From: a virus
Reading direction: 5' to 3' (one strand)
IMG/VR virus record: IMGVR_UViG_3300005732_000005
Location: 32,001-96,000 of that record
Length of the DNA stretch: 64,000 nucleotides
Shown here piece after piece: positions 11,964-27,338 of the stretch (position 1 is the stretch's first letter; each line of letters opens with the position of its first letter). The notes below the pieces were generated by a model, which worked only from the letters and a program-made list of their open reading frames with translations, ran no database searches and had not been told where the DNA came from. The position numbers were made by a program, and so were the translations under genes.

Positions 11964-11992
11964 AGTTTATATTGGTGAGAGGGTGTTGTCAA
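11964..11992 (-). promoter_or_regulatory. sigma70-type promoter
   Basis: TTGACA-N17-TAAACT. Confidence 0.6.
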
Positions 11993-12005: not shown

Positions 12006-12043
12006 ATAAAAAAGCCCGAACCTTTTTACAGGAACGGGCTTTC
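12006..12043 (-). terminator. Rho-independent terminator
   Basis: Minus strand AAAGCCCGTTCCT-GTAAAA-AGGTTCGGGC followed by TTTTTT. Confidence 0.85.
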
Positions 12044-12169
12044 GGAGGAGAAGCAACTTTACGCAAGTTGTCAGCGAAGAGGGAGAAGGAGAGAAACCCC
12101 TCTTAAAGTGGATGTCTGGGAGGAGAAATCAGACAAAGAGATTATTGTTATTATTAAGGGAGAAATATT
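12006..12169 (-). ncRNA. candidate structured RNA with five UCUCC anti-SD motifs
   Basis: Three hairpins plus terminator; five GGAGA copies on the plus strand (12047, 12082, 12088, 12122, 12159); no ORF. Confidence 0.5.
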
Positions 12170-12388
12170 TTAGTAAAGGTCATCTGGTAGGATAGGTAAG
12201 TCTAACCCTAAGTCAGAAAAGTTAATCTGTTCTTCTTCAACATAAGATTCGGATTTATTCTGGCAATTGTTACAATAAGGATCATCTACTGTAATAACCT
12301 TATATTTGCCAGATTTCTCTGGATGAGGGACTTTTACCTGCCTAGTGGGATAACCTATTTTTGCATTACATGCGATACACGTTGGCAT
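12170..12388 (-). CDS. small Zn-finger protein
   Basis: CIAC...CNNC; AAGGA SD. Confidence 0.65.
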   Translation of the reverse strand: MPTCIACNAKIGYPTRQVKVPHPEKSGKYKVITVDDPYCNNCQNKSESYVEEEQINFSDLGLDLPILPDDLY

Positions 12389-12511
12389 AAGGATTCCTTT
12401 TTTAGGAGTAAATTTGTTTAAAGAAAGTCTCTATTTAGAAACTTTAGTTTTTAGGAGGGTTATTATGAAAACAAGAAATTTTCTTTAAACAAACTTTTCA
12501 ATTTATAATTA

Positions 12512-12540
12512 ATGATAACAGTGTTTTTGAAGTGTGTCAA
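12512..12540 (-). promoter_or_regulatory. promoter with -35 and extended -10
   Basis: TTGACA-N17-TATCAT with TG extension. Confidence 0.7.
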
Positions 12541-12553
12541 CTGTTTTGGGAAT

Positions 12554-12628
12554 TGGAGCGACATATCGGTTACGATCCGATGACTCCGACTTGGAAGGAC
12601 GGGATTTTTCCAATTAAACTAATGTCGC
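12554..12628 (-). tRNA. tRNA-Gly (anticodon TCC)
   Basis: Cloverleaf: acceptor GCGACAT/ATGTCGC, anticodon loop CTTCCAA, T stem ATCGG/CCGAT, encoded CCA end. Confidence 0.92.
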
Positions 12629-23282: not shown

Positions 23283-23846
23283 ATGGCGAAAAAGTCCGAT
23301 AAAGAATTAAAGAAAGTTGCAACAAGACATTTCTTCCCCCAAGAGATTGCTCTAACAGGTTGCCCTACTAAAGAACAAAAAGCTCACAATGATATGGTGA
23401 AGAGCTATCTTGCCGATTATAGGAAAGCTACAAATCAAGCTCAAATGGGGGAAGATATCTTTAACTGGATATTAACTGATATTCATACAAGTTTCAACCC
23501 TGCAAATATGGGTAAGGCAGAAGTTATTGAGGTTGAGAATCCTGATTTTGATAATAGCAAGAAACCTTCTAAAGATAATCCTCTGACAATACAAGTTTAT
23601 CGCCACATGTATGATCCTGCAAGATATAAAGAAAATACGGCACGAGAAGTTGCTAAAGAAGCTATCCGTAAACGTGATGATTATATCAAGATGTGCCAAG
23701 AGCATGAGAAGCAGGAACAAATTTTGGCGGCGAGAGAGTTGCGTGAGAGTGAGGGTGTTGTGAGTGAGGGGGATGATGTGGGTGGTGTGAGTACTGGTTC
23801 CCTTATCACAATTGATTTTGAAGAAGATGGGACTACTTTGAATTGA
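23283..23846 (+). CDS. probable terminase small subunit
   Basis: Position upstream of TerL, own TGTTATAAT promoter, helical with acidic tail; no diagnostic motif recognised. Confidence 0.5.
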   Translation: MAKKSDKELKKVATRHFFPQEIALTGCPTKEQKAHNDMVKSYLADYRKATNQAQMGEDIFNWILTDIHTSFNPANMGKAEVIEVENPDFDNSKKPSKDNPLTIQVYRHMYDPARYKENTAREVAKEAIRKRDDYIKMCQEHEKQEQILAARELRESEGVVSEGDDVGGVSTGSLITIDFEEDGTTLN

Positions 23847-24007: not shown

Positions 24008-25237
24008 ATGAAAAGCACAATATACACATATGAATTTTTAAAGCGACATGAGATTGTTAAAAGTAAGAGAGCAACGGCCGATCACGGTTATTATGGTGAG
24101 GGTATAACACTGATGTTCCCTGTAGATATTCCCGATAAAACCAAAGGTTTATGGGCAACTAAATGCTTGTGCGGTAATTATTTCACCTGCCAACCCAGTG
24201 ATGTATATCATGCTAGGATTAAAAGCTGCGGCTGCCACATTAAAAGACGTAACAGATTAAAATATACTCTAGAAACAGTATTGTGGAGTATAAAACGAAA
24301 TTATACGCTAGGTTCTTTACCTTCAGAATATAAGAGTAGAGATATAAAATTAAAGTGTAATACTTGTGAAGTGGCTACAGATAAAGGTAATTTAACAGAG
24401 CACCTTATAGGCAACAGGCTTTTCTGTAGATGCGGTAAGACCTACAAAAGATCCTTCTCAGAAGTAAAACATGATTGCGAGGAGTACTTAAGAGAAAATC
24501 CCGAATCACCTTGGAGTATAGAGTCTTATCCAGAAGAAGAATTTACTAGTGTAAAAGATGTTAGGATATCTTTGAAGTGTAACATTTGCTCTCACGAAGT
24601 TGATATGTTATTTGGCAATTTTGTAAGGGGAAAGGGTTGTCAAGGTTGTAGCGATATAGCTTTAAAGAAAAGGATTAGCAAAGACTTGTCGTACTTCTTA
24701 GAAAAGTCTTACGAAACTCATGGTGATAGGTACGATTATAGTAAAGTTGTATACACTAAATGTAGAGAACCTGTTGAAATAGTTTGTAAAGAGCATGGTT
24801 CTTTTTGGCAATCTCCTGATAACCATTACAACAAGGGAAAGGGTTGTAGGAAATGTAACGGTAATAGGTATGTAAACTTTAAAAGAGTTTCTGTAGAAGA
24901 TAATAAAGATTTCTTAAAAAGTAAAGATTCGGGTGTATATGTTCTAAAATCTAACCTAGTAGAAGATTTGTATAAAATAGGTATAAGTGTCGTACCAGAA
25001 CGAAGGTGTAAAGATGTATCTTCGGAAAGCAAACTTGACTTCGAAGTTTTCCACTACAAACCTCTGGACATGTATAATGCGTATATATTAGAGAACAATC
25101 TACACACCGCGTATGATAGTCTTAACTGCAGAGATGATTTCGATAACAAGTTCGCAGGTTATACGGAATGTTTTATATTAGAAGAACAAGACCTGACTGA
25201 TGTAGTAAAATTAATAGATAATTATAAAGAAGGATAA
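24008..25237 (+). CDS. free-standing homing endonuclease (Zn ribbons, DUF723-like domain, C-terminal GIY-YIG/T5orf172)
   Basis: Multiple CxC/CxxC; HGDRYDYSKVVY...VEIVCKEHGSFWQSP..H..GKGC; GVYVL...YKIGIS...R...E..LH...GYTECF. Confidence 0.85.
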   Translation: MKSTIYTYEFLKRHEIVKSKRATADHGYYGEGITLMFPVDIPDKTKGLWATKCLCGNYFTCQPSDVYHARIKSCGCHIKRRNRLKYTLETVLWSIKRNYTLGSLPSEYKSRDIKLKCNTCEVATDKGNLTEHLIGNRLFCRCGKTYKRSFSEVKHDCEEYLRENPESPWSIESYPEEEFTSVKDVRISLKCNICSHEVDMLFGNFVRGKGCQGCSDIALKKRISKDLSYFLEKSYETHGDRYDYSKVVYTKCREPVEIVCKEHGSFWQSPDNHYNKGKGCRKCNGNRYVNFKRVSVEDNKDFLKSKDSGVYVLKSNLVEDLYKIGISVVPERRCKDVSSESKLDFEVFHYKPLDMYNAYILENNLHTAYDSLNCRDDFDNKFAGYTECFILEEQDLTDVVKLIDNYKEG

Positions 25238-25240
25238 TTC

Positions 25241-27338
25241 ATGTCAAAAGATAAACAAGAACCTTTCTTTAAACCTGCAAGTAAAAAACAAGCTCTTATG
25301 TTAAAAAGAGCTTCTGATACTCAAATATTGATTATCGGTGGGGCTTAAAAATCCAGTGGTCACACCTTAAACTATCCTGCTAATTCGGTGGAAGCTAAGT
25401 GTTTATACTAACATACGCCAATACCGAGCCGAATGATTAAATTCATGGGTGTAGAGGTCATCTCGTAAGAGAGTAGAGTTCAAGTGGACTCGAAACGTAG
25501 GACTGTATACCAATACAGAAGATATGATCCGACAACACAGGAAACTGTGGAAAGAGTGTAACGACTCTAAAACTGTCTCAGATTAAAGGCTGGTTCTGGG
25601 AAAAGTACGATATTAAATCACCTGCCTCTTATGTTACTAGATGACCCCAAAACAAACTGCATCTTGTATCGTAGGACAAATCCTCAACTGTTAGGTGGTC
25701 TTTGGCCTAATGCTAGAGGAATTTACGAAAAACTTCCAAAAGCTTATGAACCTAAGGCTATAAGAGATCATAAGATGGAAGTAGTATTTAAGAATGGAGC
25801 TAAAATAAAATATCAACAAGCGGAGAACGTGGCTAAATCTAAGAATGATGCTCAAGGTCAGGAGTTCACGTTTGTCGGAATAGATAAAATTTGTCTATTT
25901 GAAAGGTTTTTAGCATAATTATTTTAATGATTATAACCTTTCTGGAAAAATTGTGTGAATTCGGTGGAACTCTTTGTAAGACAATACCGAGCCAAGGTTA
26001 CGGGGTAACTCGTTTCAAGGTGTAACGACTAGAGAATACGAACCTAGAGGGTTTATGAATCTCGTACAGCCAAGTGGTAGCGAAAGCTTTAAATGGAAGC
26101 GCACAAACTCTAGCTAAAAGAGTAAGATATAGTCTCAACTTCTACGGTGACGTAGAGATGCAGGTAATGCTGCTGGTAAAGATTAACGAACTTTATTGAA
26201 GATATTGGAAGGTACACAATTCGAGTGGGAACAAATAGAGTACTTTATGTCACGTCTACGTTCCCCCTCAAAACACTTCTCCCGTATGGTAATCTCATGT
26301 AACCCCGACCCCGACCATTATATTAGGACGATGATCGACTGGTACTTAGACGAATCTGGTTATGCTATACCTGAAAGAGATGGGGTAGTAAGATACTTCG
26401 TACAGGAAGGTGGTGAGTATGTATGGGGTAATTCTAAAAAAGAGTTAGGTGAAAAGTTAAATTTACCTAAAGATCGTTGGGAAGATAAGATCCTCAGCTT
26501 CTCGTTTGTTAGTGGGACGATCTACGATAATCCGATTATGATGGAGATTAACCCGTCATACTTAGCTTTCTTAGAAGGTCTTAACGATGTCGATAAGGCA
26601 CAGTTACTTCACGGATGTTGGGATGCCAGACCTCAAGGTGCTAATTACTGGCAAAGAGAATGGGTAACGGAGATACAATCTAAAGATGTAGACCTAAGTT
26701 CTATGAGAAAGGTAAGAACATACGATTTAGCGGCAACAGAACGTAGTCAGGTAAATAAAAGCCCTGACCCAACAGCTTGTGCTCTTATGTGTAAAGACCG
26801 TAATGGTTATTATTACATTGCAGGTAACTATCATCCAGATTTTTATGATGACTACTATGAGATATATGGTCAATTCTGTAAACGTTCTGGGGATAGGGAT
26901 ATGCATATAATAAAACAAGGTCATCATGACACAGATGATACTGTAATCTTGTTGCCAGTGGATTGTGGCGCTGCAGGTAAGACGGCTTTCACTGCCATGG
27001 CTTCAAACTTTATGCAAGAAGGCTTTACAGTAAAGGCTGACCCTACTCCAAACAACAAGACAAAATTGGTAAAATTTCAGCCATTTGCAACGGCAACAGA
27101 GAACGGGCTTGTATATGTGTTGGTAGATACTTTTGATAAGAAGACTTTAGAGTTTATATACAAACAACTAGAAGCTTTTGATGGAGAAAGGTCTACAGCC
27201 ACAAAACATGATGAATTTCCAGATCTATTGGCGAGCGGGTATAACTATCTCTCAAGAGAACGTGTCATCAAACCCTTCTCCCTTCCAGATTGTTCCTCCT
27301 CCACAAAATACACTTCTTATCGAAACTCGATAAAATAA
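25241..27338 (+). CDS. terL: terminase large subunit, spliced: join(25241..25345,25589..25885,26208..27338), 510 aa
   Basis: Splicing restores Walker A IIGGA|AGSGKS and Walker B FVGID|EGTQF in frame; coupling motif SCNP; RNase H nuclease motifs YDLAAT and HDEFPD. Confidence 0.93.
25346..25588 (+). mobile_element. group I intron 1 (243 nt, ORF-less) in TerL Walker A
   Basis: 5' exon ends in U, intron ends in G; P element AATTCGGTGGAA, Q element AATACCGAGC, P3 TCCTGC/GTAGGA, P7 GGTCAT/ATGATC with AAGATAT; IGS CCAGT pairs with 3' exon GCTGG (P10). Confidence 0.9.
25886..26207 (+). mobile_element. group I intron 2 (322 nt, ORF-less) in TerL Walker B
   Basis: P1 ATAGAT/GTCTAT with U-G at the splice site; P AATTCGGTGGAA, Q AATACCGAGC, R GTAACGACTA, S AAGATATAGTC, P3 TTGTGTG/CGCACAA; terminal G. 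Confidence 0.92.

Follow-up and report, generated by a model that had tools for sequence, protein, structure and literature searches.

A conserved array of anti-Shine-Dalgarno motifs at the 3' end of a predicted phage transcript

C-rich unpaired seeds that pair at Shine-Dalgarno (SD) sequences are found in several regulatory RNAs, e.g. RsaE and the enterobacterial CyaR; CyaR-type RNAs combine them with A-rich tracts and a U-tail for Hfq. The RNAIII of Staphylococcus aureus also nucleates its pairing at SDs through C-rich unpaired seeds (PMC4615179). In the cuckoo RNAs (alpha-r14/ar14, RF02344; CcsR1-4 of Rhodobacter sphaeroides; NfeR1), which belong to alphaproteobacterial replicons, two to four adjacent hairpins with variable stems present a constant anti-SD motif, CCUCCUCCC, in every loop and are followed by a terminator. 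Cuckoo/CcsR RNAs are cut from the 3' UTR of an ORF of ~70 aa (PMC4615179, PMC8034643). Among the regulatory RNAs of strictly lytic phages, very few have been assigned a function (PAK_P3 study, PMC4933390), and a literature search of incomplete coverage found no anti-SD sRNA described from a lytic phage. In phage T4 it is a protein, the nuclease RegB, that uses the GGAG of SDs as a tag for shutting down phage mRNAs of one temporal class: it needs S1, acts on early messages and is hindered by RNA structure (PMC3014915). In the Vibrio phage ICP1, transcription of a ~300-bp interval between gp135 and gp136, without coding capacity, was recorded at 12 and 16 min post infection; neither structure nor function is given for this transcript (Barth et al., 10.1101/2020.03.12.988147), which is distinct from the 800-nt ICP1 lncRNA located between gp139 and gp140.

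The window analysed here, 64,000 nucleotides long, covers bases 32001-96000 of a phage genome that is complete at 140 kb (G000); coordinates are those of the window unless given as genome positions. We regard G000 as a relative of the Pseudoalteromonas phages J2-1 and PH357 and of ICP1. Its DNA ligase shares 68% identity with the J2-1 enzyme and 62% with the one of ICP1, and because of this resemblance its host is probably a marine gammaproteobacterium. A sequence-only reading had described on the minus strand an ORF-free candidate RNA with five UCUCC motifs, two hairpins and a terminator. All five motifs, both hairpins and the terminator are present, with a third hairpin in between; on the other hand the fifth motif reaches into the hairpin 2 stem, its probability of being unpaired being 0.33, and far from standing free, the element forms the 3' UTR of a 72-aa ORF.

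This layout, a small ORF plus a 3' UTR RNA, is that of ccaF1-CcsR, and the adjacent hairpins (three, plus the terminator) have variable, covarying stems as in the cuckoo family. The differences are nevertheless several: the motif is UCUCCU(C/U)C and not that of cuckoo, one hairpin is motif-free while two motifs lie in linkers, the ORF encodes a zinc ribbon (no DUF1127 match was found in it) whereas a DUF1127 ORF is adjacent in the CIN1 subgroup (CcsR), and the carrier is a lytic, probably gammaproteobacterial, phage. The best Rfam match is indeed ar14 (RF02344), but at 22.5 bits against a gathering threshold of 58.8 (E = 0.15), no family being above threshold. Judged by its sequence, the element is not a member of the cuckoo family. 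It has the unpaired and conserved SD-complementary seeds by which anti-SD sRNAs are recognised as a functional class, and shares C-rich seeds with RNAIII, RsaE and CyaR, and A-rich tracts plus a U-tail with the CyaR type, without similarity in sequence; the pairing of these RNAs extends to specific targets, while no conserved extension was found here. We consider it a real, conserved element of a known functional kind, which would work like cuckoo/CcsR, RNAIII or CyaR.

Anatomy of the minus-strand unit

The element is predicted to be the 3' end of a minus-strand transcript of ~500 nt, because a near-consensus sigma70 promoter, placed after tRNA-Gly, faces the 72-aa ORF. The unit is composed, in this order, of the promoter, a structured leader, the ORF, A-rich tracts, three hairpins and the terminator (Table 1); the upstream ORF, the promoter and a leader motif directed against start regions come in addition to the anatomy first described, which was incomplete.

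Table 1. Features of the unit and of its borders, in the direction of the predicted transcription (window coordinates)
Feature	Position	Strand	Remarks
tRNA-Gly(TCC)	12554..12628	-	Directly upstream of the transcript promoter; alike in G001
sigma70-type promoter, predicted (TTGACA-17-TG.TATCAT)	12512..12540	-	11/12 consensus, extended -10
5' leader	12413..12493	-	14-bp outer stem around an antisense copy of SD-spacer-AUG (12471-12451)
72-aa CxxC...CxxC zinc-ribbon ORF, acidic tail	12170..12388	-	phrog_37185; distant relative of ICP1 gp136
Anti-SD motif 1	12159..12163	-	Just past the stop codon; single-stranded, unpaired probability 0.99
A-rich AANAANAA tract	12141..12155	-	Candidate Hfq distal-face or S1 site (putative protein binding)
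Hairpin 1	12113..12135	-	6-bp stem, 11-nt loop with UCUCCUCC
Hairpin 2	12077..12104	-	8-bp stem (one G-U), loop with UCUCCU
Hairpin 3 (CAACUU stem)	12054..12070	-	Without anti-SD motif
Linker anti-SD motif UCUCCUCC	12047..12051	-	Precedes the terminator; unpaired 0.89-0.97; kept in all close homologues
Intrinsic terminator, U6 tail	12008..12042	-	Compensatory changes in homologues
Next sigma70-type promoter (predicted)	11964..11992	-	Restarts transcription for a DUF1353-like gene (11929-11483)

The UCUCC motifs lie at 12163-12159, 12126-12122, 12092-12088, 12086-12082 and 12051-12047; three to four UCUCC(U) motifs of the 3' part are unpaired, in loops and linkers, and the loops of the three hairpins carry UCUCCUCC, UCUCCUUC and GCGUA. 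The motif had been presented as an exact 8-mer, UUUCUCCU; this holds for one copy, the others being variants. The six genes cited as having a matching ribosome-binding site all carry AGGAGAAA upstream. CUCC occurs 7 times in the element against 2.3 in shuffles (P = 0.002), and the element is the densest UCUCC cluster on the minus strand of the genome, in which no second copy of it was found. Four exposed anti-SD motifs precede its terminator, whereas none is found at the other 21 of the 22 terminators predicted in the genome; an internal loop had hidden this terminator from a simple scan. That the minus strand is the sense strand is indicated alike by the U-tail, the promoters, the G-U pairs and the fold z-scores (-5.25 for the minus strand, 0/200 shuffles; -2.02 for the plus strand).

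The antisense copy of SD-spacer-AUG in the leader sits within a long AU stem and is conserved: its CAU..CUCCU motif is kept in the related 142-kb genome G001, in PH357, J2-1 and H101 (UAU in the latter) and in the loci L141-L151, with a spacer that varies. A plus-strand mini-ORF behind this motif was ruled out, as it comprises only 3-7 unconserved codons. In L141, L145, L146 and L151, leader and ORF are separated by inserted tRNA genes or by decayed tRNA-like sequences, so that the leader could be freed as a separate RNA by tRNA processing.

The 72-aa ORF has AAGGAA as its own SD, without GGAG. Its family (17 members) keeps the four cysteines and the acidic tail with a terminal aromatic residue, and ICP1 gp136 is distantly related to it (HMM E 0.007; hhalign 45%), a protein of phage G002 serving as bridge. 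No PDB fold match was obtained (Z 2.2), the look-alikes being unnamed viral proteins only; the protein could be an RNA- or polymerase-binding regulator.

Conservation in close and distant phages

In G001, tRNA, ORF, element, terminator and promoter follow one another as in G000, and a stretch of 23 identical nt falls at hairpin 3; the gene order of a close relative in Logan SRR14005098 also matches that of G000. Profile searches with the ORF led to PH357 and to eight metagenomic loci, all with the 3' array (cut off in L145). Over 10 complete homologous elements, the sense strand always has the more negative fold z-score and CUCC is always enriched (P 0.000-0.021), its loop and linker copies being unpaired; the AANAANAA tract is present in 9/10, compared with 0.01-0.10 expected per shuffle. 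A TTGACA promoter is kept at the equivalent place upstream, and another of this type follows the terminator in 9/9 homologues.

Unpaired UCUCC(U) motifs are kept at ten syntenic loci while the stems change. In an alignment of nine sequences, which was fitted to the structure model and in which five rows are close relatives, 95.5% of the cells are paired and 8 of the 22 pairs are substituted on both sides, against 1.9 in shuffled and 1-2 in slid controls; hairpin 2 contributes 4 of its 8 pairs and hairpin 3 two compensatory pairs. More telling than this fitted alignment is the fact that the same motif sits in loops closed by ten or more unrelated stem sequences; a variant hairpin, GUC-CUCCC-GAC, occurs in L146 and L149. 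The 16S 3' end sequence ACCUCCUUA is present in several leaders and in L141. Hairpin 3, together with the five bases that precede it, is the part best conserved between distant phages.

Searches by sequence returned little: blastn of the region against GenBank phages matched the tRNA only, exact hairpin and single-ORF scans of IMG/VR gave no match, a metagenome scan gave copies of G001 only, and a generic triple-motif scan gave more than 120 stretches. With the covariance model no homologue was detected in five marine gammaproteobacterial genomes, none of them Pseudoalteromonas, the three inspected among the top five matches being plain terminators; an origin of the element in the host may therefore still be considered. 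In the distant ORF homologues L152 and L154 the ORF abuts the next gene and the contigs end there, so that they are uninformative on the element.

The covariance model does not detect either the counterparts that we found by position, i.e. an anti-SD RNA at the gp136/small-terminase locus of five more distant phages, J2-1, H101, G002, R16F and ICP1. J2-1 and H101 have the ORF, then a probable small terminase, then a UCUCCUC hairpin array, a terminator and a promoter, a gene order which looks like the ancestral one; in G000 the probable small terminase gene is relocated to 23283-23846. In G002 and R16F the anti-SD hairpins stand behind the equivalent gene. The interval 3' of ICP1 gp136, also beside a probable small terminase, contains a long hairpin whose loop is UUCCUCCUCCU, a further motif UCCCUCCU and a terminator; it resembles our element in these respects and differs from it by its own promoter-like site, which G002 and R16F also have, and by not being alignable with the covariance model. 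For exposed anti-SD motifs, this locus ranks top among the terminators of G000, G001, J2-1, PH357 and H101, and is tied top in G002. A common descent of the RNA across the five counterparts is likely. The large terminase gene of G000 (24008-25237 and 26247-27338) is split by a group I intron at 25915-26157 (RF00028, E 3e-14).

SD usage and candidate targets

The commonest SD of the phage is AGGAGA, found for 59 genes against 21 for AGGAGG. With gene classes set by strand and position, GGAG-type SDs occur in 130/182 middle-type, 11/38 late and 1/21 terminal genes of G000, and the late genes differ from all others (131/203) with p = 6e-5; this deficit is conservative, since the start picker favours strong SDs. 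In the same direction, pairing with late start regions is weaker for each of the four seeds and for the leader (p <= 2.4e-8), and the AANAANAA tract is found in 8/38 late against 12/203 other start regions. The seeds pair with many start regions over 8-11 nt, the best of the phage reaching -15 to -21 kcal/mol, and no set of orthologues heads the ranking throughout the four phages compared; the target therefore looks like an SD class and not one gene. The capsid genes of G000, G001, J2-1 and PH357 have A-rich AGGAA starts (the major head protein being confirmed), while those of ICP1 and R16F retain GGAG. The terminal regions of G000 (genome >134000 and <4900, plus strand), whose genes are presumed to be the first expressed, use A-rich AGAGAA/AAGGUU starts.

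PH357 (p 0.001), R16F (0.012) and ICP1 (0.018) also show the late-gene deficit in GGAG, and G002 shows it weakly; in G001 (p = 0.17) and J2-1 (p = 0.53) it does not reach significance. These counts are not independent, because the phages are related. The deficit is strongest in G000 and PH357, the only two of the seven phages compared with a weakly RegB-like ORF, which is a confound. Pooling the five phages devoid of this ORF, GGAG is found in 74/167 late genes against 589/966 others (p = 8e-5). The ORF in question (HLMDRIIDR motif; genome 130405-130803 in G000, L300:1507-1905; 134702-135043 in PH357, L299) matches PF10715 with E 1.5e-4 and 6e-5 respectively, below the cut-off (18.5 bits vs 27 for the ORF of G000), and phrog_1323 with E 4e-4; a single-sequence structure model of the G000 ORF has a pLDDT of 49 and no fold match. 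The deficit itself may reflect an A-rich, S1-dependent initiation of late genes.

Proposed mode of action and its rivals

We lean, with modest confidence, towards a cuckoo-like, multivalent and probably Hfq-assisted anti-SD riboregulator that would repress a class of mRNAs, acting probably as a brake on translation. Once the unit is transcribed, its 3' part would accumulate either as the whole 500-nt RNA or, like CcsR1-4, after an RNase E cut in the AU-rich stretch; Hfq would bind the U-tail and the A-rich tracts, and the loops would nucleate pairing with GGAG/AGGAGA ribosome-binding sites, blocking 30S loading on many mRNAs together. Host messages and phage middle genes would form the repressed class, while the late capsid and tail genes, the RNA's own ORF and the terminal genes would largely escape through AGGAA or A-rich starts. 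We infer here the expression of the RNA as well as its processing, use of Hfq, repressing activity and timing. An RNA that dampens early-phage or host translation had been proposed: the complementarity to a common SD class fits this proposal, but "early" is not quite right, because the loops match most middle or replication-type genes and spare two groups, the genes of late structural proteins and the terminal genes, which are presumed to be expressed first. Against the riboregulator, a consensus sigma70 promoter should fire early, and an early repression of its own middle genes would be costly to the phage; the late accumulation needed by the model is drawn from a single positional counterpart, that of ICP1.

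The same loops might instead be bait for proteins, which we consider unlikely: the pyrimidine loops would mimic the 16S 3' end or bind a C/U-binding protein (S1, cold-shock, KH, or an anti-phage RNase cutting the anti-SD), and the A-rich tracts would titrate Hfq, as CrcZ does in Pseudomonas, freeing the A-rich late starts. Short motifs that recur on exchangeable stems, with no one target conserved, would suit such a decoy, as would ACCUCCUUA in leaders and the distribution of the A-rich tract among elements and late start regions; on the other hand the leader motif retains CAU at the SD-to-AUG spacing, as befits pairing with start regions, and the 3' motifs match the commonest phage SD, AGGAGA, rather than the exact 16S sequence. 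It is quite improbable that the element is only a cis-acting 3' UTR, whose hairpins would insulate the promoter that follows and serve the stability or processing of the tRNA/zinc-ribbon message (ancestrally that of the small terminase), with incidental C/U loops. It does close an operon in G000, J2-1 and H101, and a new promoter always follows, but such motifs are lacking at the remaining 21 terminators, the loops are conserved despite the turnover of stems, and the counterparts of G002, R16F and ICP1 have a promoter-like site of their own. A shielding role, in which the loops would pair with GGAG sites to protect them from a RegB-like nuclease, or time its cutting, and so prolong middle-gene expression instead of blocking it, agrees with the known cleavage of GGAG by RegB and protection by RNA structure (PMC3014915), and with the RegB-like ORF of G000 and PH357. 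We hold it for very unlikely: G001, J2-1, G002, R16F and ICP1 carry the RNA without this ORF, a strong RegB consensus is found in 0-1 start regions per genome, and pairing at the SD would by itself block ribosomes.

Two further readings involve CsrA, and we give hardly any credence to either. The plus strand was earlier proposed as an alternative, a CsrB-like sponge for CsrA/RsmA; like the CsrB/RsmY/RsmZ RNAs (RF00018), the element is a small hairpin array with a terminator, and its opposite strand has nine GGA triplets, several of them predicted unpaired in G000. This is nevertheless the wrong strand: its fold is weaker in 10/10 homologues and often buries GGAG, no promoter is conserved on it (8-9/12 at best, with positions that vary), and the U-tail belongs to the minus strand. 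The repeats are few, the loops are large (11-15 nt), and no Rfam match to CsrB/CsrC/Rsm was obtained at E <= 10. Moreover, 7/9 of the GGA triplets are GGAG instead of GGA-A/C/U, against 8/111 in six CsrB-like RNAs from Vibrio, Shewanella and Alteromonas, which argues as well against an anti-sRNA that would pair with host CsrB/C, or another GGAG-rich regulatory RNA, and free CsrA. UCC can pair with GGA loops, and seed-CsrB duplexes reach -8 to -16 kcal/mol, but these RNAs, which are not those of the true host, avoid GGAG, contain AGGAGA once in the six, and despite being far longer targets give energies no better than the best phage start regions.

If the anti-SD riboregulator is the right reading, a short RNA reading an SD class would let phages redirect ribosomes to late genes; this would have consequences for host shut-off and the conflict between ICP1 and PLE, and also for designing broad antisense regulators. 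A wider and more doubtful possibility is that ICP1-like lytic phages silence GGAG-type host and middle mRNAs wholesale, their late genes having evolved GGAG-free, A-rich starts to escape. If so, the element would be an RNA counterpart of T4 RegB, acting by RNA pairing where RegB is a nuclease, and would provide a general host shut-off or a middle-to-late switch. For the unexplained late ICP1 transcript this gives a sequence-level hypothesis, testable at once because ICP1 is cultured and its infection transcriptomes and Hi-GRIL-seq data are published.

Partial scans of 12-19 kb around the large terminase showed no like element in Barba7A, rV5-like, phiTE, Felix O1-like and PAK_P3-like phages. 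In phiTE, a pseudo-ToxI RNA (L296:5971-6029) sits in the analogous tRNA-to-terminase interval, and two late sRNAs of PAK_P3 are reported from the tRNA region; this suggests a hotspot of non-coding phage RNAs at this place. In R16F (~82347, minus strand, L191) and G002 (~85901, minus strand, L198), a second C/U-rich stretch with two exposed anti-SD motifs, also ended by a terminator, directly follows the large terminase.
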